Notes: generated by a model not told the origin, from the letters alone. A stretch of DNA of 64,000 nucleotides from an uncultured Gammaproteobacteria bacterium (GCA_964439885.1 CAYTPE010000001.1:9031-73030); one strand, 5' to 3'; numbered from the stretch's first letter, positions 8,379-60,384 are shown. Made by a program: numbers and translations.

Positions 8379-8418
8379 TCTTCTAATCTTTCAGTCTTTT
8401 AGTCTTCAGTCTTTCACT

Positions 8419-9333
8419 ATGTCTCATTATCTCGTCACTGGCGGTGCTGGCTTCATCGGTACTAACCTCGTTAAACGCTTGCTCGCCGATGGTCATACCG
8501 TAAAAGTCTATGACAATTACGCTGCCGGGAAAAAACCGGAGCGTATACAAAGTGGCGCCGAGTATATCGAAGGCGACATTCGTGATCTGGAAAGTCTGAA
8601 AAAAGCGTGTGCGGGCGTGGATGGCATTTTTCACTTAGCGGCGCTGCCGCGAGTTCTTTTCTCCGTCGAAAATCCGCTGCTCACACACGACGTGAACGTG
8701 AACGGCACACTCAATGTGCTTCTTGCCGCCCGTGATATGAAAGTGAAGCGTGTTGTTTTTTCCACTTCGTCGGCCGCGTATGGCGACCAGACGGTATATC
8801 CGCTTCCAGAAGATACGGTGATCAAGAAACCGGTCAGCCCGTACGGCTTCCATAAACTGGTTGGCGAAGAATATTGCCGACTATTCAGTCTGTTGTATGG
8901 AGTTGAAACCGTATCGCTCTGTTACTTCAATATTTACGGTCCCTATTTTGACCCCGAAGGCGCATACGCGCTCGTAATCGGTCGATTCCTCAAGCTCCGC
9001 AGCGAAGGTAAGCCCATGACCGTGCGTGGTGATGGTGAAATGTATCGCGACTATACGCACGTATTCGACGCGGTTGAAGCGAATATACTTGCTATGACAA
9101 AAGAGACGGTGGGCAAGGGCGAGGTGCTTAATATCGGCTACGGCGAACCGCATTCCGTAAACGAACTGGTGCAACTCATCGGTGGGGCAGCCGAATATGT
9201 TCCGGCTCTTCCTGGTGAAATGAAATTTACTCACGCTGATAACAGCAAGGCGCGTCGATTGCTTGGGTGGCAGCCCACCATCGCGCTTGCGGACGGTATT
9301 GCTATGCTCAAAAAAGAATGGGGATTAGAGTAG
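8419..9333 (+). CDS. NAD-dependent epimerase/dehydratase (UDP-sugar 4-epimerase-like)
   Basis: Start taken at the internal ATG 8419 (MSHYLVTGGAGFIGTNLVKRL), 40 nt after the upstream stop. GxxGxxG Rossmann motif and YxxxK (PYGFHKLVGE). Confidence 0.8.
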   Translation: MSHYLVTGGAGFIGTNLVKRLLADGHTVKVYDNYAAGKKPERIQSGAEYIEGDIRDLESLKKACAGVDGIFHLAALPRVLFSVENPLLTHDVNVNGTLNVLLAARDMKVKRVVFSTSSAAYGDQTVYPLPEDTVIKKPVSPYGFHKLVGEEYCRLFSLLYGVETVSLCYFNIYGPYFDPEGAYALVIGRFLKLRSEGKPMTVRGDGEMYRDYTHVFDAVEANILAMTKETVGKGEVLNIGYGEPHSVNELVQLIGGAAEYVPALPGEMKFTHADNSKARRLLGWQPTIALADGIAMLKKEWGLE

Positions 9334-9379
9334 AAAGTCATTGAAAAATTATTAAGAGATTATTAAAAAGTTATTATAC

Positions 9380-13011: not shown

Positions 13012-13431
13012 ATGTCTCCATTCAAACAATTCACCCTCAAAACATTCACTTCAAAAGGCTATTCACTCACCCCGGTGGAGTTTAAAGATATTGCGCCGTT
13101 CGAAGTGAAGCGCATGTATTACCTTACCAATTTTGAAGCCGCCGCGCACACGGGCGAGCACTGTCACTACGTAGAACAAGAGGTTTTCATTGTTGCCAAG
13201 GGGTCAGTCACCGCCATAATCGATAGAGGGCAGGGTAAAGAGGAAATAACGCTTACCACTCCCGGCGAAGCTTTTTATGCTCCCGCCTACAGCTGGCACG
13301 GGTTTAAGGACGCATCGAACGATTGTGTTCTTATCGCTCTCACATCTACCAACTATAGTGCCGATCGCAGCGATTATTTGGAAGATTATGAAAAATACTT
13401 GACACTCAGAGATGAACACCTGAGTAAATGA
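13012..13431 (+). CDS. cupin-fold dTDP-4-keto-6-deoxyhexose 3,4-ketoisomerase (FdtA/WxcM C-terminal-domain-like)
   Basis: 139 aa, FEVKRMYYLTNFEAAAHTGEHCHYVEQEVFIVAKGSV...LIALTSTNYSADRSDYLEDYEKY; resembles FdtA/QdtA isomerases. Confidence 0.65.
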   Translation: MSPFKQFTLKTFTSKGYSLTPVEFKDIAPFEVKRMYYLTNFEAAAHTGEHCHYVEQEVFIVAKGSVTAIIDRGQGKEEITLTTPGEAFYAPAYSWHGFKDASNDCVLIALTSTNYSADRSDYLEDYEKYLTLRDEHLSK

Positions 13432-13527
13432 CTAATGACAAATGTCTAATTTCAAATAAAATGTCCAAGTTAAAATTTGAGCATTTGTATTAGATATTAG
13501 AAATTCGATATTAGATATTCAAGTTAT

Positions 13528-19918: not shown

Positions 19919-20773
19919 ATGGATCTTTCCATCATCACTGTTACCTGGAACTCCGCCAAGCTTATCGACGAGCAGATCCGTTCTGTTGATACAGGCTGCA
20001 AAGCAATTTCTCATGAACAATACGTGGTAGACAACGCCTCTCCCGATGGAACGGCCGATTTGGTGAAACGAATATTTCCAAACGTCACCGTTATCGCCAA
20101 TACCGACAATAAAGGTTTTAGCGCGGCTAATAACCAAGGCGCTCGTTTGGCAACAGGAAAATATATTCTTCTGCTCAACCCCGATATGCGCGTCTCTCCG
20201 GGGAGTTTGGATGTGATGTACCAATGGATGGAAAAGCACCCAGATGTCGGGCTCGCCAGTTGCAAACTCGTGGATGAACACGGTAATCTCAATAGTGAAG
20301 CGCAACCAAGGCGCTTTCCTCGGTTATTCGATCAGCTCGCCATTATTTTGAAGTTGCCACATTTTTTCCCCACAGTTCTCGATCGGTACTTATGGAAAGG
20401 ATTCGACGCGGATAAAGAACAAGAAGTTGATTCCGTGCGCGGATCATTTATGATAATGCGCCGTGAAGTGTATGAAAAACTCGGCTGGGCGTTCGATCCA
20501 CGCTATTTTATTTGGTTCGAAGACGTGGATACCTGTCGCGAAGTGCACCGACTGGGTTACAAGGTGGTGCACACGCCGGTAATCTCATGCGTGGATTATA
20601 TTGGTCAGAGTTTCAAGCAGCGCACCACGCTGTGGAAGCAAAAAGAATTCACCAAAAGCATGCTCACGTATTTTCAAAAATGGGAGCCATGGTATGTGTG
20701 GATGTGGATCGCCCTTTTTCGACCAGTGGGTATTGCCTTGGCTTGGATTAACGACCGATTTAGTAAATCATAA
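19919..20773 (+). CDS. family-2 glycosyltransferase
   Basis: LSIITVTWNSAKLI...VVDNASPDGTADLV: GT-A N-terminal pattern with a DxD-type motif. Confidence 0.75.
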   Translation: MDLSIITVTWNSAKLIDEQIRSVDTGCKAISHEQYVVDNASPDGTADLVKRIFPNVTVIANTDNKGFSAANNQGARLATGKYILLLNPDMRVSPGSLDVMYQWMEKHPDVGLASCKLVDEHGNLNSEAQPRRFPRLFDQLAIILKLPHFFPTVLDRYLWKGFDADKEQEVDSVRGSFMIMRREVYEKLGWAFDPRYFIWFEDVDTCREVHRLGYKVVHTPVISCVDYIGQSFKQRTTLWKQKEFTKSMLTYFQKWEPWYVWMWIALFRPVGIALAWINDRFSKS

Positions 20774-21238: not shown

Positions 21239-22365
21239 TTATGGCGAAGCTCTCTGTCCATCTCGTCTCCTGGAACGGTGCCAAATATATCCCATATCTT
21301 TTTGACTCTTTGCGCAAGCAAACCTACACAGACTGGGAATTATTTGTCGTCGACAACGCGTCGACTGACGAGACAGTTGCTTTGATTCAGAAAGAGCTTG
21401 TCAATTTTCCTTTTGCTTCGCGTGTTACAGTAAACACCACGAATACTGGTTTTGCGGGAGGGCACAACCAAGCGTTCAAAGCTGCGAGCGCTGAGTATTT
21501 TTTGTTACTCAATCAAGACATGTACCTCATGCCCGATTGTTTGGAGAAGATGGTACAGTTTCTCGATGAACATTCTGATGTGGCCGCTGTTTCGCCACGC
21601 CTGATGTGTTGGGCCTTTAGCGAGGATTTAAACGAATTTAAGGTTGATTCAGACAGATTTAGACAGAGTCTTACGCATCAGATTGACGCGCTGGGACTCA
21701 AAATTTTCCGCAATCGGCGAGTGGTGGAGCAGCATACGCGAGAAGAGTGGAGCGCATTTGTCATCCCCGACCATGATCGGGGATCTATCGCAAACGAACC
21801 GCAGAACGTGGATTCCCGTTTGCACGGGAATGACAGTGTCATAGTACTTGAAGTGTTTGGCGTTTCCGGTGCCTTCCCTATGTTGCGCCGTTCCATTATT
21901 AACGAAATTGTCTTTTCCGATGGAACGTTTCTGGATGAATCGTATCATTCGTACAAAGAAGATATGGACCTCGCGTATCGACTGGCTGCTCATGGAACAC
22001 GATCGTACATACTCAGCGATACGGTGGCGTACCACGATCGATCGGGAGCCGGCCCCAAGGAACTTTCCGACTGGGCAGCCGCCAAAAATAAATCCACCCA
22101 ATCGAGTTGGGTGCGCTACCATAGCTACAAAAATCATCTGATGACACTGTACAAAAACGAATACTGGCAGAACGCACTACTTGATGCGCCGTGGATATTG
22201 TGGTATGAAATTAAGAAGTTTGTTTATTTTCTACTGTTTGAACCGCGCGTGCTGAGGGGGTTAGGTGAGGTGTGGAAAATGCGTAAAGATTTGAAGATTA
22301 AAAGATTGAAGATTAAAGAATTAAGAAAGGTTGGTTGGCGGGAAATGAGAAAGTGGTGGCGGTGA
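21235..22365 (+). CDS. family-2 glycosyltransferase (contains an in-frame copy of a 29-nt repeat)
   Basis: LSVHLVSWNGAKYIPYL...FVVDNASTDETV GT2 N-terminus. Nucleotides 21808-21836 are identical to an intergenic MITE-like element at 30594-30622. Confidence 0.75.
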   Translation: MIMAKLSVHLVSWNGAKYIPYLFDSLRKQTYTDWELFVVDNASTDETVALIQKELVNFPFASRVTVNTTNTGFAGGHNQAFKAASAEYFLLLNQDMYLMPDCLEKMVQFLDEHSDVAAVSPRLMCWAFSEDLNEFKVDSDRFRQSLTHQIDALGLKIFRNRRVVEQHTREEWSAFVIPDHDRGSIANEPQNVDSRLHGNDSVIVLEVFGVSGAFPMLRRSIINEIVFSDGTFLDESYHSYKEDMDLAYRLAAHGTRSYILSDTVAYHDRSGAGPKELSDWAAAKNKSTQSSWVRYHSYKNHLMTLYKNEYWQNALLDAPWILWYEIKKFVYFLLFEPRVLRGLGEVWKMRKDLKIKRLKIKELRKVGWREMRKWWR

Positions 22366-30551: not shown

Positions 30552-30621
30552 TTGTCATTCCCGCCGGAGCGGGAATCTCGGGTATATAACGAAGTGGATT
30601 CCCGTTTGCACGGGAATGACA
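30552..30621. mobile_element. MITE-like double-hairpin element with terminal inverted repeat TTGTCATTCCC / GGGAATGACA
   Basis: TTGTCATTCCCgccggagCGGGAATctcgggtatataacgaagtggATTCCCGtttgcaCGGGAATGACAg. It has the same termini as the element at 36631-36736; the internal 29 nt recur at 21808-21836 and a degenerate copy lies at about 60245-60275. Confidence 0.5.
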
Positions 30622-30685
30622 GACGGTAAATCGGGTGCTATATTCTAATTGTAAACAGTATAGCATGGGGTGTCTATAAAGGAAA

Positions 30686-30716
30686 TAAAAAACACAGCTT
30701 ACGTCTGTGTTTTTTA
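30686..30716. terminator. rho-independent terminator downstream of the minus-strand tRNA-Pro pair
   Basis: AAAAAACACAGcttacgtCTGTGTTTTTT. Confidence 0.5.
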
Positions 30717-30720
30717 TGTG

Positions 30721-30794
30721 TCGGGCTGACACGACTTGAACGTGCGACCTCATGCACCCCATGCATGCGCTCTAGCCAACTGAGCTACAGCCCG
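30721..30794 (-). tRNA. tRNA-Pro (anticodon GGG)
   Basis: 74-nt cloverleaf folded by hand from the reverse complement: acceptor CGGGCUG/CAGCCCG with the bacterial tRNA-Pro hallmark C1:G72, anticodon loop AUGGGGU, T-loop UUCAAGU. Confidence 0.8.
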
Positions 30795-32089: not shown

Positions 32090-32290
32090 TCGGTTTTGGA
32101 GACATAGCCACGCCCCACCCTGGGGCTGGTTTTATTTTGGTTTTGTGTTATACTCTTTGAAAATGTCAAGTATCAAATTTCTAATGCCAAATAAAAAGCA
32201 CATTATCCAATTTTCAATACAATATATTTGATATTTGAGCTTAAAATTTGATTGGAAATTCGTCATTTGTCATTTGACATTTACTGATGT

Positions 32291-33808
32291 ATGGACGGGA
32301 AAGAGGTATTTGAACTTATAGCCACAATCGCCAAACATAATAAAACTCCAACATATATCGTCGGTGGTTTTGTGCGTGACGCGCTGCTCGGTCGCGGGCA
32401 AAAAAAGGACATTGATTTTGTGGTGGTTGGTTCCGGCATTGCATTCGCAAAAAAATTTGATGAGGCAATGAAGCAGTCAGGCTCGCTTATTGAGTTTCCC
32501 GATTTTGATACGGCGCGGTATGTCATAAATCCCCGCTTGGGCGGGGAGCCGTCCGCCTTGGCGGCGGACGGGGGGTGGGTTGGTGAGAGCAACGAAACAC
32601 TTGTTTTGGAATTCGCGGGAGCGCGTACCGAAAAGTATGACGAGAAATCACGCAAACCAAAAGTGGAGGCAGCTAGTTTGGAAAAAGATTTGGAGAGACG
32701 AGATTTTACTGTGAATGCAATGGCAATAGATGTAACGAAATACGAAAGGTACGAAAATACGAAAGAGATAAGTGATATAGCGATTGATCCATTCAACGGT
32801 CGGCAAGACCTTGAAGATAAAATTTTGCGCACGCCGCTCGATCCGGATGTTACATTTAGTGACGATCCGCTACGTATGCTTCGCGCAGTGAGGTTCGCGG
32901 CTCAGCTTAATTTCAGTATCGAACCAAAAACACTCGAAGCCGTTCATCGAAATCGTGAGCGAATGAAAATCATTTCCGGTGAGCGAGTGCAAGAAGAACT
33001 TATTAAACTGATGGCGACTCCCGTGCCATCAATCGGACTGCAACTTATGTGGACCACAGGGCTCATGGATGTGGTACTCCCCGAAGTGTCGGCCCTGGAC
33101 GGTGTGGAAGAAATTTTTGGTCACCAACACAAAAACAATCTCGTACATAGTATCAAAGTAGTCGACAACATCGCCGAGTGGTCCACGAACCCGTGGCTAC
33201 GCCTCGCCGGGCTTCTCCACGACATTGGCAAACCCGGTACCAAGCAATTCCTCCCCAAAATTGGGTGGAGCTTTCACGCGCACGAGCACCTCGGTAAAAA
33301 ATTGTTTTATAACGTCGCGCGCCGCCTCAAACTCTCCAAAGAAAAAACCGATTATATCGCTAAGCTTATCCGCTGGCATCTACAGCCAATCGCGCTCATG
33401 GACGAAGGTATTACCGACTCGGCAGTGCGCCGGCTCATTGTCACAATGGGGGAGGAACTGGAGGATCTGCTCATCCTCGGTAAAGGTGACATTACTACGG
33501 GCAACCCGTATAAAAAAGAAAAAAGATTAAAGAATTACGATCGTTTGCGTTCAACGATTGATGACTTGATTGAGCGAGATAAACTCCGCGCCTTCCAGTC
33601 TCCGGTGCGCGGTGATGAGATAATGCAGCTGTGTGGGCTTAAACCTGGGCCAACGGTGGGTAAAATAAAAGAAGCCATTGAAGAAGCTATTCTCGACGGT
33701 AAAATTCCGAACGAGTATGACGCGGCGAAACAGTATTTCGAAGAGATTAAAGACGAGTATCTGAAAGAAGCAGCGCGATGGGAAAGAGAGGAAAATGGTA
33801 CGGAGTAA
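32291..33808 (+). CDS. cca: CCA-adding tRNA nucleotidyltransferase (head domain + HD domain)
   Basis: PTYIVGGFVRDALLGRGQKKDIDFVV nucleotidyltransferase signature, RDFTVNAMA, and the HD motif LLHDIGKP. Carries an approximately 40-aa insertion in the head domain. Confidence 0.8.
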   Translation: MDGKEVFELIATIAKHNKTPTYIVGGFVRDALLGRGQKKDIDFVVVGSGIAFAKKFDEAMKQSGSLIEFPDFDTARYVINPRLGGEPSALAADGGWVGESNETLVLEFAGARTEKYDEKSRKPKVEAASLEKDLERRDFTVNAMAIDVTKYERYENTKEISDIAIDPFNGRQDLEDKILRTPLDPDVTFSDDPLRMLRAVRFAAQLNFSIEPKTLEAVHRNRERMKIISGERVQEELIKLMATPVPSIGLQLMWTTGLMDVVLPEVSALDGVEEIFGHQHKNNLVHSIKVVDNIAEWSTNPWLRLAGLLHDIGKPGTKQFLPKIGWSFHAHEHLGKKLFYNVARRLKLSKEKTDYIAKLIRWHLQPIALMDEGITDSAVRRLIVTMGEELEDLLILGKGDITTGNPYKKEKRLKNYDRLRSTIDDLIERDKLRAFQSPVRGDEIMQLCGLKPGPTVGKIKEAIEEAILDGKIPNEYDAAKQYFEEIKDEYLKEAARWEREENGTE

Positions 33809-33900
33809 GCAGTGAATCGTTTACTCCTTATTCTTTACTCTTTACTCTTTTGAAAAAGCATGGTATGATAAGTATGAAATTACATATTTAACTTTTTTCT

Positions 33901-34122
33901 ATGGCGACACGCAAAAAACGCCATGACGAAGCCCATTTTAGCGGGACGGCCGTGCTCGGTGAACGAGGGCAAGTGGTGATACCCAAAGAAGCCCGTGCCC
34001 AGATGGAGCTGAAGCCCGGCGATACGTTTGTGGTTATGGCTCACAACGGGGCGGTCATATTTTTACCCAAAAAGAAAATGGAGGCGTTTATTAAGCAGAT
34101 GACTGCGAAATTGCATCTCTAA
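33901..34122 (+). CDS. AbrB/MazE/SpoVT-family swapped-hairpin DNA-binding protein
   Basis: 73 aa, GERGQVVIPKEARAQMELKPGDTFVVMAHNGAVIFLP. Confidence 0.65.
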   Translation: MATRKKRHDEAHFSGTAVLGERGQVVIPKEARAQMELKPGDTFVVMAHNGAVIFLPKKKMEAFIKQMTAKLHL

Positions 34123-35884: not shown

Positions 35885-36607
35885 ATGTCATTAATCCAGA
35901 TCATTGATTTAAAAAAGGATTATGTGAACGAGGAGCTCGTCACCCCTGTTCTGAAAGGTCTCAATTTCAGTATCGAAAAAGGGGAATTTGTCTCCATCAT
36001 GGGGCCGAGCGGTTCCGGCAAATCGACGCTCATGCATATTCTGAGCTTCATGGACAAACTCTCCACGGGTAAATATCTCTTTGATGGGCAGGATGTAAGC
36101 ACGCTTACCGACGATGAACTGGCCGAGATGCGCAGTACCAAGGTAGGCTTTGTGTTCCAGGCTTTTAATTTGCTCCCTCGCGCCAGCTCGCTCGAAAATG
36201 TGGTGTTGCCACTTATCTATAGCAAAACAGCCGCCGCAAAACGCGAACAGCGCGGTAAACAACTGCTTGAGTCAGTTGGCCTATCGCATCGCCTCGCCAA
36301 TACGCCAGCGCAGCTCTCGGGTGGTGAAAAGCAACGCGTGGCGATCGCTCGCGCGCTCGTGAACAATCCGGATGTTATTTTTGCGGACGAGCCAACTGGT
36401 AACCTCGACTCCAAGTCCGGCCTCGCGGTGATGAAAATTTTACAGCAGCTCAACGACGAAGGGCGTACGATTATACTCGTCACCCACGAACGCTTCACCG
36501 CCGAGCACGCTAAACGTATTTTGGAAATTCGCGACGGCCTCATCATAAAAGATGAAGCAGTCAAAAATCGTCAGATCGCGAAGGAGCGGGAGGAATTGGC
36601 GAAGTAA
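35885..36607 (+). CDS. ABC transporter ATP-binding protein (MacB/LolD type)
   Basis: Walker A GPSGSGKST, ABC signature LSGGEKQRVAIARAL, Walker B IIFADEPTGNLD. Confidence 0.9.
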   Translation: MSLIQIIDLKKDYVNEELVTPVLKGLNFSIEKGEFVSIMGPSGSGKSTLMHILSFMDKLSTGKYLFDGQDVSTLTDDELAEMRSTKVGFVFQAFNLLPRASSLENVVLPLIYSKTAAAKREQRGKQLLESVGLSHRLANTPAQLSGGEKQRVAIARALVNNPDVIFADEPTGNLDSKSGLAVMKILQQLNDEGRTIILVTHERFTAEHAKRILEIRDGLIIKDEAVKNRQIAKEREELAK

Positions 36608-36630: not shown

Positions 36631-36736
36631 TTGTCATCCTGAGGCCACAGCCGAAGGATCCCTCTCCACCAATCGAAAGGGATTCTTCCCGCCAAAGGCG
36701 GATAGGCGGGGGTGTTAACCCCACTCAGAATGACAA
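36631..36736. mobile_element. MITE-like hairpin element (TTGTCATCCTGAG...CTCAGAATGACAA termini) between the ABC ATPase and permease genes
   Basis: Imperfect 13-bp terminal inverted repeat flanking about 80 nt with internal CCCGCC/GGCGGG hairpins. Its termini resemble the 30552-30621 element. Confidence 0.45.
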
Positions 36737-36770: not shown

Positions 36771-38006
36771 ATGTTATTCGAAAATCTCAAATCAGCCTGG
36801 CAAATTATTTCCCGCAACAAAGTGCGGTCGTTTTTGACGATGCTTGGAATTATTATTGGTGTCATGTCAGTCGTCGTCATTATGTCCGTAGGTGCCGGCG
36901 CGCAAAGTCTTATCATCAACCAAATCAATAGCCTTGGATCGAACTTAGTGGGCATCTTACCCGGTAAGTCGGACGACAACGGGCCACCGGCAGCAGTCTA
37001 CGGCATTGTTATTACCACGCTTAAAGATAGCGATGGCACGGCTATATTGAATTCAGGCAACCCTCATGTTGTGGCATACTCGTCATATGTGCGTGGTGCC
37101 GACACGGTAACGACCGATGAATCCAAAACCGATACGACGTTTATGGGTGTGAGTGCATCGTACCCGAATGTGGAAAATATCTCGATGGCCGAAGGGCACT
37201 TCTTTACGCATGATGATGAGGTGGGCGTAGAGCGAACAGCGGTGCTCGGCAGCGCGGTGGCGCATGATTTGTTTGGCGACCAGAGCGCACTCGGACGACG
37301 AATAAAAATTAAAAAAACAAATTTTCAAGTGGTAGGCGTGCTTGCGTCGCGCGGGCAAAGTGGATTCCAAAATCAAGATGATCAAATTCTTGTGCCGGTT
37401 ACGACCGCGCAGAAATTGTTGCTTGGCATCGATCATGTAAATTTTATTCGGGTGAAAATAGATGACGCTGCGTATGTGGATAGCTCGATGGAAGAAATTC
37501 GCTCCATACTGCGTGATCGACACAACATCGTAAACGCGGAAAACGATGACTTTTCGGTTCGCTCCACCAATCAAGGAGTGGATGTGTTGCTGAATATTAC
37601 TAACGCTCTCAAATTTTTTCTCGCTGCCATTGCCGCTATTTCGCTCGTGGTTGGCGGTATCGGCATTATGAATATTATGCTGGCAGCCGTGGAAGAGCGC
37701 ACCAAAGAAATCGGCTTACGAAAAGCCATTGGTGCCAAGCGGCGTAATATTATCAGTCAATTTTTGGTGGAAACGGTACTCATCACGTTTTTGGGGGGTG
37801 CTATTGGCATACTACTCGGTAGTTTGCTCGCGGTCACAGTGGCCAAAGTCGCGCAAGGCATGGGGTATCAGTGGGATTTGGTAATCACTTGGTCGTCGGT
37901 GATACTCGGCTGCGTCGTTTCTATTTCCATTGGCCTCATCTTCGGACTCAACCCAGCACGCCGCGCCGCCGCCCTTGATCCGATGGTGGCGTTACGGTAT
38001 GAATAA
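36771..38006 (+). CDS. ABC transporter permease (MacB/FtsX-like)
   Basis: 411 aa: N-terminal transmembrane helix, large periplasmic domain and a C-terminal FtsX-type 3-helix bundle (LAAVEERTKEIGLRKAIGAKRRNI). Confidence 0.8.
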   Translation: MLFENLKSAWQIISRNKVRSFLTMLGIIIGVMSVVVIMSVGAGAQSLIINQINSLGSNLVGILPGKSDDNGPPAAVYGIVITTLKDSDGTAILNSGNPHVVAYSSYVRGADTVTTDESKTDTTFMGVSASYPNVENISMAEGHFFTHDDEVGVERTAVLGSAVAHDLFGDQSALGRRIKIKKTNFQVVGVLASRGQSGFQNQDDQILVPVTTAQKLLLGIDHVNFIRVKIDDAAYVDSSMEEIRSILRDRHNIVNAENDDFSVRSTNQGVDVLLNITNALKFFLAAIAAISLVVGGIGIMNIMLAAVEERTKEIGLRKAIGAKRRNIISQFLVETVLITFLGGAIGILLGSLLAVTVAKVAQGMGYQWDLVITWSSVILGCVVSISIGLIFGLNPARRAAALDPMVALRYE

Positions 38007-38094
38007 TTATTGAAAAGTTATTAAAAAATTATTAAGAAATTATTGTGTGAAAATATTAAAATAATTTTTCAATAATTTCTTAATAATTTTAAAA
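38004..38094. repeat. AT-rich inverted repeat built from TTATTAAGAAATTATT-type units
   Basis: TTGAAAAGTTATTAAAAAATTATTAAGAAATTATT...AATAATTTCTTAATAATTTTTCAATAATTTT. One arm recurs at 9339-9378 downstream of the epimerase gene. Confidence 0.5.
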
Positions 38095-39411: not shown

Positions 39412-39687
39412 TGTAGTAGCTGGCCTGCCTCGGCTGCTACAGCTTGCTCCATCACCACCGGAGGGTAAGGTGAGAGCACATGCTGTGCAGCCGAGGCGAG
39501 GTCACTTGGCCCTACGCACGTACGTGCGTAGGTAAAGAGAGCCGCGGGCACCCGCTCGTCGCCGCCATGCCTTGTTCGTTCACCGGGGGGCCGGAGTTTT
39601 CCGAACAGAGACACACACGCGGTCACGACTAGCGGGGCCCGAGGCCCGACTGTGCCAACCACGATGAAGCTGTGGCTGGCGTTTGGA
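39412..39687 (-). ncRNA. GC-rich highly structured RNA of unknown class, co-transcribed downstream of tRNA(UCA)
   Basis: About 276 nt at about 65% GC in an AT-rich context, with no plausible ORF. Contains several perfect or near-perfect helices, including the 22-nt palindrome CCTACGCACGTACGTGCGTAGG, GCCTCGGCTGC...GCAGCCGAGGC (11 bp, long-range), GGGCCtcgGGCCC and CCGGccccCCGG. Bounded by the tRNA on one side and a terminator on the other. Confidence 0.25.
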
Positions 39688-39757
39688 TGGGGCCAGGAGG
39701 ATTCGAACCTCCGCATTCCGGTTTGAAGCCGGACGCTCACCTCTGAGCCATAGCCCC
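39688..39757 (-). tRNA. tRNA-like gene with anticodon UCA (UGA-decoding; resembles Trp-type anticodon arm)
   Basis: Hand-folded 70-nt cloverleaf: acceptor GGGGCUA/UGGCCCC, D-arm GCUC-AGAGGU-GAGC (short loop), anticodon stem UCCGG/CCGGA with loop CUUCAAA (U33, U34-C35-A36, A37), 4-nt variable loop, T-arm GGAGG-UUCGAAU-CCUCC, discriminator A. No encoded CCA. Confidence 0.5.
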
Positions 39758-39898
39758 ATACACCAGCACCGCCGAAGCGGTGCCGTCCTCTCTCACGCAC
39801 ATGCATGCGTGAGAAAAAAGCGACCCCCAAACCCGGGATCCGTCCACGGGAGGGAACCCGCGACAAACCACGCGAGATCTGGGGGTCAGTTGGGCACA

Positions 39899-40695: not shown

Positions 40696-40965
40696 ATGGC
40701 CAATCGTCGTGCAAACGTGGTGCCGGGAGCTCCGGCGCCGGTTACTCCAGACCGTACCGCCGGGGCCGATGCCCCGACGCGGTACATGCCTCAGATCGAT
40801 GGCAGCAGTGCGGCCGACAAGCGGCATCGGCCGCTCGCTGACGGGCTGGCAGAGAGCCGGCTCGTCCAGATCGTCTGCCTGCGCCGCTACCTCTGGGTGG
40901 CGGGCGGAATCGCGGCCCTGGAGGCCGCTCTGCTGGCCGCGCTGGCGGCTAAGTTCCTCCTCTAG
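40696..40965 (+). CDS. small (89 aa) protein with Pro/Ala-rich N-terminus and a C-terminal transmembrane helix; GC3-rich codon usage
   Basis: GGGGGAGGaagaagATG ribosome-binding site. C-terminal RLVQIVCLRRYLWVAGGIAALEAALLAALAAKFLL. Followed by a strong 11-bp GC hairpin (GGGGTCTCGCC...GGCGAGACCCC). Confidence 0.4.
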   Translation: MANRRANVVPGAPAPVTPDRTAGADAPTRYMPQIDGSSAADKRHRPLADGLAESRLVQIVCLRRYLWVAGGIAALEAALLAALAAKFLL

Positions 40966-41086
40966 GAGGCTGACCCCGCGGGGTCTCGCCCGTGAGCGCT
41001 TTCGAGCGACCGGCGAGACCCCCGGGTCTCACTACTCCACGTATTGCTTTTTAAGCCGTGGGGTGATAAGGTTTGAGTGTTGTGTG

Positions 41087-41199
41087 AAAAGAATAAAGAG
41101 TAAAGAATAAAGAATAATAAACGAAACCACCACTCTTTACCTGCCTGCGTAGGCAGGCTCTTTACTCTTTACTCTTTACTCTTTACTCTTTACTCTTTC
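41087..41199. repeat. inverted heptamer tandem arrays (TAAAGAR x3 ... CTCTTTA x6) flanking a central GC hairpin, immediately upstream of dnaG
   Basis: aaaGAATAAAGAGTAAAGAATAAAGAAtaa ... GCCTGCgtagGCAGGC ... CTCTTTACTCTTTACTCTTTACTCTTTACTCTTTACTCTTTC. Confidence 0.6.
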
Positions 41200-41205
41200 T
41201 CATCC

Positions 41206-43179: not shown

Positions 43180-44511
43180 ATGGTTGCAAAACCACATCGC
43201 CCGGTAAAACGAGCGAAGACAACTAAGAAGGCTGTTAAATCAGCCCCCAAAAAAGCAGCTCAGAAGGCTGTAAAAAAAATTCTTAAGAAAAACGGCCACA
43301 AGGCCCCACGGGTCAAGGCCAAAAGTACTGTTTTCTCCACCAGAGGTGGATCCTCCTTTGGAGGAAAAAAAGCACCCGCCAAATCGCGCGTGCCACTTAT
43401 TCCCCTCGAGCCGGTACGTGAACCGTCCGAAGCCGAGCTCTGGGAACTCATCCGCAAGGGGCGCAACCGTGGTTTCATCACGGAAATCGAACTCATGCGC
43501 GTTTTGCCGCAACCAGAACAATACCTCGATTTATACGAAGGCTTTTTGGATTTGGCCGAGCGCAATGGCATATCGGTAGTAGAAACCGCGCCCAGTCTGC
43601 TCGGCACCAAAGAACAAAACAAAGAAACCCTCAAACAATTTCAAGGCGAGCAACCGGACATGGACGTGCCGTTTGATCTGGCTCAAATCTCGAGCGACTC
43701 CATACAGATGTATTTGCGCGAGATCGGCAAGATCCCGCTGCTGTCTGGTGAAGAAGAAGTCGCGCTCGCCAAACGAAAAGAACGAAACGATAAAGCCGCC
43801 GAGCGCAAACTCATCGAAGCGAACCTGCGCCTCGTGGTTTCCATTGCCAAAAAATTCGTGGGCAAAAGCTTGTCGCTCCTCGACCTGATCCAGGAAGGTA
43901 ACATCGGCCTGTTTCGCGCGGTAAAAAAATTCGACTACCGTAAAGGGTATAAATTTTCCACCTACGCCACTTGGTGGATACGCCAGGCCATAACGCGCGC
44001 GCTGGCCGACCAGAGCCGCACCATCCGCATTCCAGTGCACATGGTGGAAACTATCAACCGCTTCCAGCAAGTGCAGCGCCGTTTGCAGCAAGACCTCGGC
44101 CGTGACCCCACGCCCGAAGAGCTGGCCGCCGAAATGGGGGAGGAAGTCGATAAGATTCATCACATCATCAAGATCTCGCAAGACACCATGAGCTTGGAAG
44201 TGCCGATTGGTGACGACGATGAAGATACACAACTTAGTGATTTTATCGAAGACGTCAAAAATGTCTCACCCGATCGCGCGGCGGGATTGCAAATTTTGCG
44301 TGATTACGTTCAAAATGCAATTAAAGATCTCTCTCCTCGTGAACAAAAAATTCTTGAGATGCGTTTTGGTTTAAGTGACGGTGTAACACACACACTGGAA
44401 GAAGTAGGGCAAGAATTTGGTGTGACGCGCGAACGTATTCGCCAGATTGAAGCGAAGGCACTCGAAAAAATTCAGCAGACGGATATTGTGAGTAAATTGC
44501 GTGATTATTAA
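43180..44511 (+). CDS. rpoD: RNA polymerase sigma-70 factor RpoD (with Lys-rich N-terminal tail)
   Basis: Region 1.2/2 [66 protein letters not shown], and region 4 [15 protein letters not shown]...[24 protein letters not shown]. Confidence 0.9.
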
Positions 44512-44513
44512 TT

Positions 44514-45026
44514 ACGTACAGACGTACAGAAAGTACAGAAATACGGAAGGTACAAGAATTAAATATAAAATATATGTCAAGGGAGGGGGTTGCTATCATC
44601 AAAAAAGATTTCTTATATCCGGATTTGACCTACAAAATTAACGGTGTTTTATTCGATGTATTTAAAGAGTTGGGCGGAGGTCACCTGGAAAAATATTATT
44701 AGAAAGCTGCGGCAATCGGGCTGAGCAAAATTCCTCTCAAGTTTGTAGAACAATACATGGTTCCATTAACCTACGCCGGACAAAAGGTTGGTAAATAGTA
44801 TGTAGACTTTTTGATCGAAGAAAAAATAGTATTGGAATTAAAACGAGGTCTATTCATTCCGGCAAATGTAATCCGTCAGACAAAACAGTATTTGATTGCA
44901 ACAAAATTGCAACTGGCACTGGTGGCGTGCTTTACACACAACGGTGTGATTATAAAACGAGTGCTTAATATTTATTAACGAGGTCAGTACGTTCTGTACT
45001 TCTGTACTTTCTGTACGTCTGTACGT
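44514..45026. mobile_element. MITE-like non-autonomous element with about 40-bp terminal inverted repeats composed of GTACAGAA-type octamers, carrying a decayed GxxExxY gene
   Basis: Left end ACGTACAGACGTACAGAAAGTACAGAAaTACgGAAgGTAC (44514-44553). The right end's reverse complement is ACGTACAGACGTACAGAAAGTACAGAAgTACaGAAcGTAC (44987-45026), with a 26-nt exact core. It is inserted exactly between the rpoD stop (44511) and the murG start (45032). Confidence 0.55.
44574..44978 (+). pseudogene. GxxExxY-family (PD-(D/E)XK nuclease-like) gene interrupted by two in-frame TAG codons
   Basis: Translation MSREGVAIIKKDFLYPDLTYKINGVLFDVFKELGGGHLEKYY*KAAAIGLSKIPLKFVEQYMVPLTYAGQKVGK*YVDFLIEEKIVLELKRGLFIPANVIRQTKQYLIATKLQLALVACFTHNGVIIKRVLNIY matches the GxxExxY family. 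TAG at 44700-44702 and 44796-44798. TAG is a bona fide stop elsewhere in the window. Confidence 0.6.
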
Positions 45027-45031
45027 TCTCT

Positions 45032-46111
45032 ATGAAAATTATCCTCTCTGGTGGCGGCACACTTGGTCCGGTCATTCCGCTACTTGCGATCGCCGAAACC
45101 TACCGACAGAAATTTCCGGAAGTAAAATTCATCTGGGTTGGCACCGCCAATGGCCCGGAAAGGGGAGTGGTGGAAAGTTATAATATACCTTTTTTTTCGC
45201 TTGGTTCAGGCAAATGGCGGCGGTATGTATCGCTGTGGAACGTGGTGGATCTCTTCCGAATAGTCGTGGCTTTTTTTCAGTCGCTGTATTTTTTGCTGCG
45301 TGAAAAACCGGACTTACTTATCTCGGCCGGTGGCTACGTGAGCGTGCCGCTGCACTGGGCAGCCGGACTGCTCGCTATGCCCACGTGGGTGCATCAGCAA
45401 GATGTGCGTGTCGGGCTCGCGAACAAACTGATGTTACCGTTCGCGCGCAAAGTCACAACGGCCGTGCGCGAGACAGCGGATGCGTTGAAAAAAAATCACG
45501 CCGAGTGGATCGGTAATCCGTCACGTGATCTGCGCGTCGCCGACAAAGTGGCGGCGCGAAAAAAATTTGCTATTCCGTTTGACGCGCCGGTGATCTTCGC
45601 GCTCGGTGGTGGTACGGGGTCGGCAAGTGTGAACAAGTTGGTGCTTGACGCGTTGCCGCACTGGCCAAGTAAATGGCACGTGATCCACCTCGTGGGAAAA
45701 GAGCGCCCCAAGGAACTTTCGGAACGTGCCGCTGTCGTCTATCCGAACTATCATGTGTATGATTTTTTTACCGATGAGATGAAGGACGCGTATGCCATTG
45801 CCGATGTGGTAATAGGCAGGGCCGGTTTCTCAACCTTGACTGAGATCGCCGCTCTTTCGAAGGCGGCAGTAATACTGCCTATGTTTGGCACTCATCAAGA
45901 ACAAAATGCCGATCTTTTCGCCACCCATGGCGGGATCATAACTTTGGAGCGGGGGACAGAGACCGGACTTAAGCTAGCTCAGGTAGTAAAAGACCTGGTA
46001 GAAGTGCCCGAAAAGCGCCGTGAATTGGGGGTGGCTATGCACGAACTTTTGCCGCGGACACCTGGGGATAAGATTCTTGCGCTCATCGAAGAGGTGTGCA
46101 TACAAAAGTGA
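45032..46111 (+). CDS. murG: undecaprenyldiphospho-muramoylpentapeptide beta-N-acetylglucosaminyltransferase MurG
   Basis: 359 aa, MKIILSGGGTLGPVIPLLAIAE... N-terminal G-loop, and a C-terminal GGSLGA-like/UDP-binding region. Confidence 0.85.
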   Translation: MKIILSGGGTLGPVIPLLAIAETYRQKFPEVKFIWVGTANGPERGVVESYNIPFFSLGSGKWRRYVSLWNVVDLFRIVVAFFQSLYFLLREKPDLLISAGGYVSVPLHWAAGLLAMPTWVHQQDVRVGLANKLMLPFARKVTTAVRETADALKKNHAEWIGNPSRDLRVADKVAARKKFAIPFDAPVIFALGGGTGSASVNKLVLDALPHWPSKWHVIHLVGKERPKELSERAAVVYPNYHVYDFFTDEMKDAYAIADVVIGRAGFSTLTEIAALSKAAVILPMFGTHQEQNADLFATHGGIITLERGTETGLKLAQVVKDLVEVPEKRRELGVAMHELLPRTPGDKILALIEEVCIQK

Positions 46112-46257: not shown

Positions 46258-49200
46258 ATGCATTTGGGAAGTGCTCGTACAATAGCTGCACAATTAGGCC
46301 GCATTACCGGCTATTTTTTGCTTTTTGTACTTGCTTTAGGGGGCCTTTTTGTTGATCCGTTTGTATCGACAGCTGCCACTGGTGTACCTAAAATTTTCAC
46401 CTATCAGGGTCGTTTGCTTGATGGGGCGGGGAATTTGCTTGGTGGCAATGGTACCAACTATTGTTTCCGTTTCTCGCTGTACGACAACGCCACCGTCGGG
46501 CAGGGCGCAAAGGTATGGCCGGCAGGAGTTCCGTCTACCATGACGCTACAAGTTAAGAGCGGTGTTTTCAACGGCGCAATCGGCGATCTTGCTGCGGGAG
46601 GGGATTTGCTTGATTATAATTTTCAGGATTCCGATGAGGTGTACTTGAACGTAGAAGTAGCAGCCCAGGTGGGTGGCTCATGCGCGGGTGTGGCATTCGA
46701 AACACTGGCTCCACGTCAGCGTGTGACTGCTAGCGGTTATGCCATCAACGCGAACACAGATGGCGGATTTACCACATCGCAGATTGCAACAGGCAGCCAG
46801 ATTCCCGTGCACACCAATGGTGCTATCGTGCTTGGTGGTGCCACTGCCGGGCTCAGTGCTACCAACGCAAACCCGCTTCTTTTGCAGGGGAGTGGTAGTG
46901 GTGACATTCAATTTTTTTCTGCACTGAATAAACTTTCTTCTGCCGGTAATTTAACATTGGCCGGATCACTCACTGCCAACGGCGCACTTCTCATCAACAA
47001 TGACGCGACTATTACTGGCACAACGACGTTGGCAACAACGAGTATTTCCAAAGCAACAATTGCGAATGCTACGGTGAATAATTTAACTGTAACGGGGGTG
47101 TGTTTTGGTTGTGGTGGGGGGGGGGCGGCAGGTGGGGTGAACACATCAACGGCAGGATACATGGCGTATTATCTGAATGGCACAAGCGTAACGGGCACAA
47201 GCATGGTGACCTTTGCTGGTAACACATTTACGGTTTCAGGTTTGTCTGTATTTACTGCTACCGCAACTTTTGCCACAACAAGCATTACGAACGCCGCTAT
47301 TGGCTCTGCTTCAGTAGGAAATTTGGTAGCTACAAACAGTACATCGACAAATAGCTTTGCTGAGGGGCTTGCTTATACCAATTTGTCTGGTGTCAATGCT
47401 ACTTCGACAAATTTGTTTGCGTCACAATTTAATTTTGTGAATGCAAATGGAACGAGTCTGACTTCTACGAATGCATTTTTTTCTAATTTAGCTGTAGGTA
47501 ATTTCAGTCCGACGAATTTGTCGACTTCTAACATTACCACTACCAATTTTGTCGCGACGGGCGCGGTGAGTCTGCCAGTTAACTCGGTGACCGACGCGAT
47601 GGTTTCGAACTCTTTGACTATTGACAACACGGGAAATATTTCCGCTACCGCTATCAATTCGGGAACACTTGGTAACAATGCTGTCACGTTGGCTCTCGGA
47701 TCTTTTGGCTCGATCACTGGAGCGCTTGGAGATGCCAACGTAGCGGACAATCTTACCATCAACGGTGGCACTATTAACAACACAACGATTGGCGCGTCGA
47801 GCCCCTCCACGGGTGTGTTTACGAACGCGACAGCTACCAATTTTGTTGCCTCGAATGTTACCACTACTAATTTGGCAGTGACGGGAGCACTAAGTGTGAC
47901 CTCACTCAACCCCACGAATTTGGCTTGGGTAAACGCCACGGGAACGAACAGTATTCTGAACAATGTAACAAGTACGAATTTGTCCGTCTCTGGCTTAACC
48001 ACTCTCGCCAACACCACCTTGACCAACGCCACCTCCACCAACTTCAACACCGTTGGCCTCACCTTCACCAACGCCACGGGCACCAACAGTGTCTTCACGA
48101 ACGCTACCAGTACCAACCTCTTTAGCACTGGCCTTGCCTTCACCAACTTAAACGGTACGAATGCCACCTCCACCAACTTCTTTGCCACCAACCTCGCGAG
48201 CCTTGGCCTGACCAGCACCTACGGCAACCTCTCCTTTATCACCGCCACCGGTGTCACCTCCACCAACGCGAGCTTTACGAACCTCAGTGCTGCCACCTTC
48301 AACCCCACCAATCTCACCTGGACCAACGCCACGGGGACCAACAGCGTCCTGACCAATGTGACCAGCACCAACCTCGCCGTCAGTGGCCTGGTTGCCTTAA
48401 CAGGGAACACCACCTTGACCAACGCCACCTCCACCAACCTCTTCTCAACCGGCCTCGCCTTCACCAACCTCTCTGGTACCAACGGAACAAGTACCAATTT
48501 CTTTGCCACGAACCTCGCGAGCCTTGGCATTACGTCCACGTATGGCACCATTACCTTCTTAACAACCAGCGGCATCACCTCAACCAACGCGAGCTTGACC
48601 AACGTTACCTCCACCAACCTGTCCGTCTCTGGCTTAACCACTCTCGCCAACACCACCTTGACCAACGCCACCTCCACCAACTTCAACACCGTTGGCCTCA
48701 CCTTCACCAACGCCACGGGCACCAACAGTGTCTTCACGAACGCTACCAGTACCAACCTCTTTAGCACTGGCCTTGCCTTCACCAACTTAAACGGTACGAA
48801 TGCCACCTCCACCAACTTCTTTGCCACCAACCTCGCGAGCCTTGGCCTGACCAGCACCTACGGCAACCTCTCCTTTATCACCGCCACCGGTGTCACCTCC
48901 ACCAACGCGAGCTTTACGAACCTCAGTGCTGCCACCTTCAACCCCACCAATCTCACCTGGACCAACGCCACGGGGACCAACAGCGTCCTGACCAATGTGA
49001 CCAGCACCAACCTCGCCGTCAGTGGCCTGGTTGCCTTAACAGGGAACACCACCTTGACCAACGCCACCTCCACCAACCTCTTCTCAACCGGTTTGGCATT
49101 TACTAATCTCAATGGTACCAATGGAACCAGCACCAACTTCTTTGCCACCAACCTCAGCAGTCTTGGCAGTACTTCCACCTACGGTAACATCTCCTTCATC

Positions 49201-52200
49201 ACGGCTAGTGGCATCACATCGACTAATGGTAATTTCACTAATTTAACAGCTTCGAACTTCATTCCAACCAATCTCACCTGGGTGAGTGCCACCGGTACCA
49301 ACACCGTTCTAACCAACGCCACATCAACCAACTTAAATACGGTTGGGTTAACCTTTACGAATGCCACGGGGACCAACGCTGTCTTGACCAACGCCACGTC
49401 AACCAACCTCTTCTCAACAGGTCTGGCATTTACTAACTTGAACGGCACGAACGCAACGAGCACCAACTTTTTTGCCACCAACCTAAGTAGTCTCGGGCTC
49501 ACCACTACGTATGAGAAAAGTACATTCCTTGTAGCGACAAATGCTACTTCAACTAATTCTTTTGTCACTAATCTATCAAGTCTAGGCATAACATCCACAT
49601 ACGCAAATCTTGGTTTCTTGGTAGGTACTAATATTACTTCAACAAATCAATACAGCAACGGTCTCACCTTTAATATCGCCACAGGTACCTCTATCACTAC
49701 TACAAATGCATATATCGCAAGTTTGGTCGTCGGCACATGTACGGGTTGTGGTGGCGGTGCGGCAAGCGGTGGTGTAAATACTTCGACAGCTGGAAATTTT
49801 GCTTATTATCAGGGTGCCAGCTCAGTCACCGGTACATCTGCCCTTACCTTGTCTGGTACGAATATTACTGCGAATGGCGCAGTAGCCTTAACTGCTACTA
49901 CCACCGCCACCAATCGTTTTATTAACACCATATCAAGCGGCTCAAATATATCAGTGGTCGGCAGCGTTGCTCTTGCCAACTCAGGTTCTAAACCATACAA
50001 CCTAGTACTTCGAGGACGGTATGCCTATGTAACAAATTTCGCTAGTTCTACCATATCTGTGGTTGATTTAAGCAATCCGGCAGCACCAACTGTAATTAAT
50101 ACAATTAGCGTTGGAATTAACGTCGGGCCAACAGGCATCGATAATGATAGTAGATATTTGTATGTTGCCGCGTCGTCTACGCCAAGCCTTTATATTTACG
50201 ATCTTTCAACTGCAGCAGCCCCGTCTCAAGTTGGTCAGTCGCTTTTGTCTTTTTCACCAACAGATATAGGAGTAGATGGTCATTTTGTCCTACTTCCGTC
50301 TCCGAGCTTTGGTCAGGTCCAAATTCGTGATATTAAATATCCAAATAATGTATCATCTGTTCCTGGCTTGGGTGGTGTTACTGGTGGAACCCGCATTACT
50401 ATCTTTGGTAAATATGCCTACTACTCGGGCTCTTCCAATCTGTATATTGCTGACGCCTCCAACCCTGCCTCAATGGTTGTTAATGGTAGTATTGCTATGC
50501 CTAATCAGGTTAATGGCGTGTATGTTGTAGACCGATACGCGTACGTATTAAATGGAGGCTCGTTAAACGTAGTTGATATTAGTACGCCCAGCGCTCCAGT
50601 AAATGTTGCGACCACTTCAATCGGCGGCACTCTCTGGGGAGTGGCTGGTACTGGCCGCTATCTCTACATTACAGATAAAGCCAACAGCTCCGTTGATGTC
50701 GTAGACGTGGCAAGCTCTACCAACCCAGTCTTAGTAAAAACCATTACAGGCTTTGCTTCACCGCAAGGCATCGCCGTTAACGGAAGATACGCCTACGTTG
50801 TAGATAATGGTGATGGTACTCTCTATGTAATTGATTTACAGGGAACGGAAGTGAGCTCTCTGGTGGCATATTCTGCCGATGTCGGTTCACAACAAATTAG
50901 AAATGATCTCTACATTGGCAACAAAGCTTTTGTGCTTGGAGGGTTGACTGTTGGTAGTTTGGGCATCGCGTCAGCCGGAGATCTTGTGGTCCAAGGCACC
51001 GGCAATTCTACACTAGCCGGCGCTTTGGTTGTTTCGTCATCCATTTCAGCAAGTGCTTTTTCTGTGTCTGATAATTCATTTTATACAAGTGTAGGAACAA
51101 CCTATATAACAAATCTAAACGCTACTAGCATTACCTCCACCAACCTCTTTTCTACCGGTCTCACCTTTACTAACGCTACAGGTACCAAGGCCATTTTCAC
51201 GAGCGCCACCTCGACGAATTTGTATACAACAAACGGCGTGTTTACTAATGCCACTACTACCAACCTGTATTCAAACGGGTTGGTCTTCTCACGCGCCACA
51301 AGTACGGCATTAACTTCCACCATCGCATACATCGGCAGCCTGACAGTCGGCAGCTGTTCAGGTTGTGGCGGCGGAGTCTCTTTGAGCGGCAATAATACAT
51401 GGAGCGGGCTAAATATATTTACCAATACTACCACATTAGCCACCACCACCATTTCAGGTATATTTGATGGTGATGCTAAATTCGTCCCAGCTAGCCCGAA
51501 TGGGAATGGTTTCCAAGTAATGAATTTAGAAAACGATGAGACGCTTTTCAGCGTCGGCCCTTCAGCAGGGAATGCTGATTTTGTGGCGATAGGGGATAGA
51601 AGTGCCGCGCTTACGACCACTACACTCTTATATGTTGATACCAAATCTGATGCTGGCGACCCCACGCCTCCACTGAGTGCGGACGGTGCTATCTATTATA
51701 ATTCGAATAGCAAAAAATTCCGGTGTTACGAAAATTCGTCATGGAAAAATTGTGATAGCGCTGCTAATGCTCAAACATTTACCGCCACAAGTACCTGGAA
51801 CAAGCCAAACGGTGTTACATATGTTACCGTGCGTTGTATTGGCGGTGGCGGTGGCGGTGGCGGCGGAAGTTCGAAGGCGGCTGGTGGTGCACGAGCTGGG
51901 GGCAGTGGCGGTGGCGGTGGCTCTGTGCTCATCAGAACATTTTTAGCTTCTGACGTAACATCTAGTATTGGTATTACTGTTGGCCAGCCAGGTGGGGCTG
52001 GCGCCGGCGGCGTAAACGGAGCCAACGGCACCAGCGGCAGCGCTGGTACTGCATCCAGTTTTGGCACGTATGTCACCTGTTATGGTGGTGGCGGCGGTTT
52101 TGGGGGCACAACTGCAGTGAATTCAGGTGGTACAGGTGGTGGTCACGGTGGTGCTGGTAATAGTGGCAGTGGTTCAGCTTCCACTGGCGGCTTGCCGGCT

Positions 52201-60213: not shown

Positions 60214-60384
60214 AGTATATGATTGCAGTAAGTTACTAGTCGTTTTTTGTCATTTCCGCTTTCGCCGGAACGAGATTGCTGAGATTGTTATATCTAGATT
60301 GTATCAAAAGACCGGCACAATGGCAAAAGTTAAACGAGAGCATCGCAGTAAACAAAAACACCACCTGTCGGCGGGTTTTTGTTG

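Follow-up and report, generated by a model that had tools for sequence, protein, structure and literature searches.

TGTC-tagged hairpin dimers in a putative Patescibacteria genome probably belong to the CGTC-tagged REP and NTS/SRM class of repeats

The CGTC-tagged REPs were defined by Di Nocera, De Gregorio and Rocco (2013; PMC3733652). There, the family CGTC-1 is described by the tag CGTC, which in many repeats is TGTC and may also be CCTC, an 8-bp stem starting with AT, a 4-nt loop and 3-nt tails that are mostly CCA. Inverted dimers with spacers of 20-100 bp predominate, and dimers that lie inside genes code for 20-30 aa. CGTC-1 is the same repeat as dRS3 of Neisseria and RPE-6 of Rickettsia conorii, and both RPE-6 and RPE-4 are CGTC REPs. 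The same paper describes CGTC REPs as lacking a dedicated transposase and as not being flanked by RAYT genes.

For Neisseria, the 28-nt NTS (CGTCATTCCCGCGMAVGCGGGAATCYRG) and a degenerate Ssn-related motif (SRM) were given by Chenal et al. (2025; PMC11893778). SsnA is a 94-aa single-domain GIY-YIG protein (cd10448) that binds the motif only as ssDNA, does not bind RNA and cuts a few nucleotides 5' of the motif tag. Binding by SsnA depends critically on the C that follows the palindrome and cutting on the three bases that precede it, and the loop of the NTS is not essential for cleavage. In the same work an IS-like NTS-ssnA-NTS arrangement was reported and an analogy to REPIN/RAYT was drawn, and only 2% of the NTS, in N. 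meningitidis, were found to be intragenic. Mobilization by Ssn is still a hypothesis in this literature (PMC11893778).

The DNA analyzed here, referred to as the window, is a stretch of 64,000 nucleotides (64 kb) with a GC content of 47%. The neighboring proteins point to a Patescibacteria genome of the Magasanikbacteria type as its host. A scan for hairpins anchored at GTCAT identified as the repeat unit a module of ~27 nt, which consists of a TGTC tag, an 8-bp stem beginning with AT, a loop of 4-6 nt and a tail with C as its first base. Four canonical modules are present in the window as two inverted pairs with the tags outermost (elements E1 and E4), plus two variant modules (element E2). 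TGTC was found 5' of all four canonical modules. An 8-bp stem beginning with AT and a 4-nt loop were found exactly in three of the four (ATTCCCGC with the loop CGGA, and ATTCCCGT with the loop GCAA, twice), and the fourth has a ATCCCCGA stem with a 6-nt loop. The tails are CCA (twice), CTC and CTA. Thus, a C directly 3' of the palindrome and TGTC 5' of it, the determinants of binding and cleavage in the literature, are present in 4/4 canonical modules. The spacers of E1 and E4 are 15-25 nt long, depending on whether the 3-nt tails are included. As ssDNA, the canonical modules all fold better than their shuffles, with z values from -2.4 to -4.8. A whole element forms one long hairpin with a z of about -5 to -6 (ssDNA z -5.9 and -5.3 for the double-hairpin element).

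Element E1, which is intergenic and located at 30552-30621, is an inverted dimer in which two TGTC-tagged hairpin modules have their tags facing outward. It reads TTGTCATTCCCGCCGGAGCGGGAATC...GATTCCCGTTTGCACGGGAATGACA, with an 18-nt spacer between TTGTCATTCCCGCCGGAGCGGGAATC and GTGGATTCCCGTTTGCACGGGAATGACA, and the initial annotation, in which a double hairpin bounded by inverted repeats had been described at this site, could be confirmed in its reading of the sequence. The left module (30553-30579, plus strand) is composed of the tag TGTC (30553-30556), the stem half ATTCCCGC (30557-30564), the loop CGGA (30565-30568), the stem half GCGGGAAT (30569-30576) and the tail CTC, and its ssDNA hairpin has an energy of -8.8 kcal/mol (z -4.5). 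It departs from the Neisseria NTS consensus in its first tag base, its loop and one position of the YRG tail (TCG). The left module at 30553-30579 is missed by the SRM pattern in its strict published form, and this solely because the stem-closing C-G pair adjoins the unusual CGGA loop. The right module (30595-30621, minus strand), TGTC-ATTCCCGT-GCAA-ACGGGAAT-CCA, is a canonical CGTC-1/SRM unit; it is matched by the published SRM pattern and its ssDNA hairpin has a z of -4.8. When the whole double-hairpin element was folded as RNA, which had been proposed as a check of its stability, its fold was far more stable than those of shuffles (z -5.3 and -6.0).

A gene for a spermidine-synthase-like/M28 peptidase membrane protein has its ATG at 30519 on the minus strand, and E1 lies 32 nt upstream of this ATG. 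The distance to tRNA-Pro, given earlier as about 100 nt from the tRNA-Pro pair, was measured as 98 nt to tRNA-Pro(ggg) (30720-30794). A promoter-like site and a terminator-like hairpin after tRNA-Pro (30685-30717) are both located upstream of E1, and E1 is likely part of a 5' leader.

The motif ATTCCCG-N6-CGGGAAT, scanned as N(3-12), occurs three times in the window compared with 0.01 expected from shuffles, and its third occurrence (21812-21831) revealed element E4, which had been missed in the initial annotation. E4 is an inverted dimer like E1, located at 21758-21836 and measuring 78 nt (26 codons) from tag to tag. It lies in frame within the ORF of a GT2 glycosyltransferase (21241-22365, plus strand) and encodes VIPDHDRGSIANEPQNVDSRLHGNDS as residues 174-199. 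The left module (21759-21787, plus strand; TGTC-ATCCCCGA-CCATGA-TCGGGGAT-CTA) has an 8-bp stem and a 6-nt loop and matches the SRM pattern, and the right module (21809-21835, minus strand) is identical to the right module of E1. The right 29 nt of E4 (GTGGATTCCCGTTTGCACGGGAATGACAG) equal 30594-30622 of E1 without a mismatch. An extra TGTCAT tag (21837-21842, plus strand) abuts the right end of E4; it is missing from that junction in orthologues and may be a remnant of an earlier neighboring module.

The SRM pattern, used as HGTCWYN(0-2)YYVSBRHN(0-5)WNVSBRGN(0-2)RNCYNB, gave four matches in the window compared with 0.18 expected. These are 21759-21788(+), 21808-21835(-), 30594-30621(-) and 33461-33491, of which the last is likely due to chance and the other three are true. 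Chance palindromes or unrelated local hairpins have next to no probability as a general explanation: only a further site at 60245-60274 (see below) behaves in that way, and against it stand three observed occurrences where 0.01-0.18 are expected, the 29-nt identity between E1 and E4 and hundreds of copies elsewhere. For E1, E4 and E2 this explanation is already refuted. Two CGTC-like hairpins at 20491-20524 and 33900-33927 were rejected as further members, as both are without the family stem; the hairpin at 33900-33927 also overlaps with the beginning of an AbrB-like ORF.

Other repeats and features were observed in the window. A 40-nt inverted repeat (93% complementary, with GTACAGA-like heptamers) at 44514-45026, between the ORFs 43180-44511 and 45032-46111, flanks 433 nt in which a small GxxExxY/PD-(D/E)xK-like protein with two in-frame stops (a pseudogene) was recognized by eye; this unit resembles another small mobile or selfish unit. 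A pair of 45-nt inverted repeats (82% complementary, ..AATGACTAATGACAAATGTC..) is located in distant regions at 13418-13462 and 32246-32290. AT-rich repeats with an 11-nt period (AAAGTTATTAA and AAAATTATTAAG, respectively) at 9334-9378 and 38003-38090 are palindromes directly 3' of the ORFs 8344-9333 and 36771-38006, and may be terminator-like or end-of-gene elements of the host. Runs of the heptamer TTTACTC and its complement are present at 33820-33850, 41088-41117 and 41161-41205, and 41088-41117 forms a 30-nt hairpin with 41162-41191. This hairpin lies just downstream of an 89-nt 'tRNA-Pro(tgg)' (40887-40975), an ARAGORN call without confirmation by Rfam. At gathering thresholds, Rfam identified only tRNAs over the window. 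The tRNA at 39684-39758 was called tRNA-SeC (anticodon TCA) by ARAGORN and an ordinary tRNA by Rfam (69.5 bits). Either this is a miscall or the tRNA could have a suppressor or recoding function, which bears on the genetic code of the CPR genome. The ORF 46258-52704 (2148 aa) contains tandem repeats of 321/639 nt (about 47.9-49.5 kb), some copies of which are 97-100% identical, and Gly-rich GGCGGTGGC runs, and probably encodes a large repetitive surface protein.

Element E2 (36631-36736), with the termini TTGTCATCCTGAG...CTCAGAATGACAA, is an inverted dimer of a sister module type (TGTCATCCTGAG...; TGTC-AT-YCT-GA...GA-AGR-AT-C), and the whole element folds with a z of -5.5. Both its termini and its setting between an ABC ATPase and a permease gene were as claimed before: it is intercistronic in an operon for a MacB-type ABC transporter, its neighbors being the genes for the ABC ATPase (35885-36607) and the MacB/FtsX permease (36771-38006). 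The left module (36632-36661, plus strand) reads TGTC-ATCCT-GA-GGC-CACA-GCC-GA-AGGAT-CC and folds as ssDNA into ....(((((..(((....)))..))))).. (z -2.2), which corresponds to a stem of 5+3 bp that is interrupted by a 2x2 G/A internal loop and capped by a loop of 4 nt. From sequence reading and folds, the right module (36680-36735, minus strand) is TGTC-ATTCT-GA-[34-nt expanded loop, two small hairpins]-GA-AGAAT-CC. A reading of the E2 modules as containing tandem G.A mismatches was considered; what the ssDNA fold supports is the stem of 5+3 bp with its 2x2 internal loop. With their ATYCT-GA...GA-AGRAT stems, these modules differ from the four CGTC families described in PMC3733652, and they also fall outside the SRM pattern. 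TCCCG-type and CCTGAG-type elements have the terminal tag TGTCAT in common. Modules of the TGTCATYCTGAG type, which are related to those of E2, were found in other genomes and in GT2 orthologues, and loci are shared with other TGTCAT-tagged families (TGCGAG, TCTGAG, CCTGAG, GCTGAA and others). Because of this co-occurrence in the same loci, E2 is placed in the same superfamily.

At 60245-60274 (plus strand), a doubtful relic (TTTGTCATTTCCGCTTTCGCCGGAACGAG) consists of the tag and a damaged hairpin without the ATC tail; the ORF 59629-60213 on the minus strand begins about 35 nt downstream of it. It had been annotated as a degenerate left end of the same family. The sequence is as given, but its folds are at shuffle level (RNA z +0.6 and 0.0, ssDNA z -0.8) and it is not matched by the SRM pattern; the site is chance-like and its membership in the family is unproven. 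The estimate of at least three intergenic copies in 64 kb is therefore corrected to two solid intergenic copies, to which the missed intragenic E4 is added, and the third proposed site counts as a doubtful relic.

The E4 insertion was checked against orthologues at the protein and the DNA level. The segment is absent from most of the 120 closest GT2 orthologues (340-350 aa). An AlphaFold model contains a confident GT-A core (pLDDT above 90), on which the insert is predicted to occupy a surface loop; it is modeled as an unstructured loop with a pLDDT below 50 at residues 181-197. Four orthologues with other insertions were confirmed by their DNA: one (L242) contains a full dimer in another loop of the protein (VIPAKAGIQ...LDSRLRGND), one (L243) a slightly decayed solo module in the loop of E4 (MDSRFHGND), and two (L244 and L245) dimers of the TTGCGAGG and CCCGAGG families in the loop of E4. 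In 3/4 genes with an insert in this loop, the insert ends at the shared junction ATGACAG|TCTnGAGGT, and in the GT2 gene of the window the extra TGTCAT is located between ATGACAG and TCTnGAGGT. At least three module families (the TCCCG, TTGCGAGG and CCCGAGG types) end at one GT2 junction in orthologous Magasanikbacteria genes. Many GT2 orthologues contain progressively decayed relics, e.g. DPRFHGDD, DSSFYGND and NSLFSNKD, and dozens carry decaying DSRFHGND relics at the E4 site. In the metagenome sample about 6% of the copies are modules within long ORFs, which agrees with the 2% in N. meningitidis in the literature and with known in-frame insertions of RPEs and REPs. A conserved loop peptide, KMxMSFRAERF(N/R)G..., was observed in the GT2 orthologues P0009, P0012, P0013, P0039, P0066, P0076, P0080, P0081, P0097, P0101, P0103, P0109 and P0115; it resembles an old domesticated TGTCATTCCGAGCG-type module that now evolves as protein sequence.

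When one genome per species was scanned, at least 120 genome stretches, representing nearly all bacterial phyla, were found to contain the TGTCATTCCCG-N6-CGGGAATC module. Among the matches listed are Bacteroidota, Planctomycetota, Chloroflexota, Nitrospirota, Proteobacteria, Cyanobacteria, Spirochaetes and Omnitrophota, as well as many CPR lineages such as Magasanikiibacteriota, Uhrbacteria, Saccharibacteria and Paceibacteria. No close relative of the window was identified by BLASTN against all fetched loci. In metagenomes, at least 120 stretches contain the right module as an exact 26-mer, on contigs with a GC content of 31-64%, in unrelated contexts and in both orientations. The general module pattern was found in at least 120 viral-contig stretches of IMG/VR. 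In five of the viral loci (L247-L366; e.g. L265 922-1263 and L306 2922-3335) an ssn gene lies beside the modules, and either phages or prophages may move the system between hosts or these regions of viral contigs may be host flanks. Dense module arrays, mostly of alternating orientation, in which tags that stand back to back are always about 15 nt apart, were observed on five contigs with the prefix Ga0209381 and a GC content of 31-34% (L124, L133, L153, L180 and L184), and resemble the clusters of Neisseria and Wolbachia.

The 319 distinct modules hardly vary in the GTCA tag bases, in the closing A-T pair and in the tail C, with C as the first tail base in 299/319, and the loop, usually GNRA-like, is mostly G-N-A-R. 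Compensatory changes were found at 7/8 pairs of the stem, with GTCA invariant. The percentage of paired positions is circular, because the modules were selected for pairing, and the informative contrast is that between the variable stem and the fixed tag.

The suggestion that the elements may act as transcription terminators or attenuators was not borne out. No T-run follows any of the elements, no intrinsic terminator was found at E1 or E2 by scans including a consensus scan, which instead gave the terminator-like site at 30685-30717, and E4 is located in an ORF; the lack of a T-run and of a scanned terminator leaves this idea without support. REPs of other bacteria can alter mRNA stability. 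More generally, the elements could be cis-regulatory RNAs (terminators, attenuators or mRNA stabilizers) selected for that role, in line with their stable RNA folds, the intercistronic position of E2, the likely leader position of E1 and the effects that REPs can have on mRNA elsewhere. We regard this as improbable, since in addition to the intragenic copy and the lack of terminators no element matches Rfam, the same 26-mer is scattered over such different genomes and contexts, and SsnA does not bind RNA (PMC11893778). Side effects on transcripts or mRNA stability are possible.

Neighboring modules in the genome loci are arranged as 71 convergent pairs (tags outward), 16 divergent pairs and 17 same-strand pairs, and the spacers of the dimers fall into two classes of 2-92 nt and 298-312 nt. 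Every spacer of 298-312 nt carries an ORF of ~95 aa (MxxYYVYILASxRNGTLYIGVT...REKQIKKWNRxWKxxLIE) that is assigned to GIY-YIG by Pfam. Additional ssn genes flanked by modules were identified, five in metagenome loci and five in viral loci. The Ssn family has thousands of members, which are 70-80% identical across phyla, and homologues are named in Berkelbacteria, Doudnabacteria and the "Patescibacteria group". On a Berkelbacteria contig, ssn lies between the modules 2956-2980(+) and 3286-3310(-), with a short dimer immediately adjacent. The family and its Ssn partner reach into CPR/Patescibacteria. A different small GIY-YIG gene (MYYVYIL...GKVKSTKNRxP...) was observed near modules, and not flanked by them, in Moraniibacteriota (L097 1924-2169) and Paceibacterota (L118 4238-4492). 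Within the 64-kb window no ssn or other GIY-YIG gene was found with a motif regex and an HMM built from eight locus-derived Ssn proteins.

Among the occurrences of the right module, 52/129 scored as dimers in a strict test. They are 57-115 nt long, most of them 66-80 nt, so that E1 (70 nt) and E4 (78 nt) are typical. As a rule the dimers are heterodimers, in which the partner is of the TCCTGC, TCCCAC or TCCCGC type and the spacer is unrelated. This set bears on the proposal that the elements are a family of MITEs, i.e. deletion derivatives of an IS on whose TTGTCAT... termini a transposase acts with the formation of target-site duplications. A length of 70-106 nt and inverted termini speak for this proposal, as does the TGTCAT or TTGTC after the right ends of E4 and E2, which resembles the left end. 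However, whichever boundary offset is taken, the flanks of the 52 dimers are identical over 2-6 nt no more often than by chance, and no target-site duplication was found at E1 either; the TGTCAT/TTGTC repeats that follow E4 and E2 are thus no general feature. In addition, each arm is a hairpin module in its own right, the two arms often differ in stem sequence and the spacers are variable, the only gene found between the arms encodes the ~95-aa GIY-YIG nuclease and not a transposase, and CGTC REPs have no associated transposase (PMC3733652). A classical MITE is thus very unlikely. What remains of the proposal is a real repeat family of miniature inverted repeats in the descriptive sense.

The same architecture of doublets and the same absence of target-site duplications would also be expected if REP doublets were moved as REPINs by an IS200/IS605-like tyrosine transposase (RAYT), and the analogy drawn in PMC11893778 points in this direction. 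Yet the tag is TGTC instead of GTAG, RAYT genes do not flank CGTC REPs (PMC3733652), and in the sampled loci the gene between the arms is of the GIY-YIG type and no association with a RAYT was seen. Mobilization by a RAYT is accordingly given very little weight.

The best explanation, which we consider probable, is that E1, E4 and E2 are inverted dimers of CGTC/TGTC-tagged REP hairpins (dRS3/NTS, RPE-6, SRM class) in a Patescibacteria host, the short dimers of the window being presumed non-autonomous miniatures of the module-ssn-module unit. As is known from the literature, it is in ssDNA that Ssn recognizes the folded module, and its cut lies on the 5' side of the tag (PMC11893778). The dimers would be kept or spread via ssDNA intermediates by an Ssn that is encoded elsewhere in the genome or was a past resident, in a relationship like that of REPIN and RAYT; GIY-YIG nucleases are, however, not known to perform strand transfer. 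The copies in the window would then be passengers with side effects, namely a 26-residue insertion in the loop of the GT2 protein (E4), a stable hairpin in the 5' region of the gene for a membrane protein (E1) and an intercistronic hairpin in an ABC transporter operon (E2). Across phyla, one architecture is common to the short inverted dimers and to the units that carry ssn, as would fit a selfish life cycle of the REPIN kind.

That TGTC-tagged hairpin dimers actively and site-preferentially insert into coding DNA of CPR bacteria is a much more tentative idea, and one that we think unlikely at present. If the insertions in the GT2 loop arose from independent events, and not from selection for a tolerant loop, new copies would enter beside existing tags, exactly where Ssn cuts ssDNA. 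If the idea were true, the module-ssn-module unit would represent a new class of GIY-YIG-driven ssDNA mobile element with spread across phyla and remodeling of protein loops. The recurrent in-frame GT2 insertions at the same site are the one aspect that could lead to something new, and CPR protein loops with in-frame elements at recurrent sites are a natural data set on repeat insertion.

The family had initially been considered previously uncatalogued, but it matches the CGTC-tagged REPs of PMC3733652 and the NTS/SRM of PMC11893778. The finding is thus the rediscovery of a catalogued repeat superfamily and its main value is correct annotation: the hairpins yield spurious small ORFs and odd peptides (VIPAKAGIQ, DSRLRGND, CHPERSE) in many MAGs, and they break assemblies.

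Compared with the CGTC-1 REPs of PMC3733652, the elements of the window are alike in tag, stem, loop, tail, inverted dimers and intragenic coding dimers, and the right modules fit CGTC-1 exactly. The differences are that the portion of that paper used here names no CPR host, whereas the host of the window appears to be a member of the CPR/Patescibacteria, and that the left loop of E4 has 6 nt. The NTS CGTCATTCCCGCGMAVGCGGGAATCYRG can be set against TGTCATTCCCGYnnnnRCGGGAATC of the window, the first tag base being C in the NTS and T in the window (PMC11893778). The terms MITE, REPIN and in-frame do not occur in the text of the Ssn paper, which does not describe short dimers as miniatures, and unlike the NTS/Ssn system of PMC11893778 the window has no ssn gene.

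REPIN/RAYT systems resemble the TGTC dimers in that inverted doublets of tagged hairpins fold into one hairpin and are without target-site duplications. They resemble the module-ssn-module units in having a single-copy partner gene flanked by repeats and in their dependence on hairpins in ssDNA. They differ in the tag, which is GTAG and not YGTC, and in the partner, which is an HUH tyrosine transposase and not a GIY-YIG nuclease. The RPEs of Rickettsia are likewise located in frame in loops of conserved proteins with the reading frame intact, in a different host clade, and what sets the case of the window apart from them is that several TGTC-tagged module types share one loop of orthologous glycosyltransferases.
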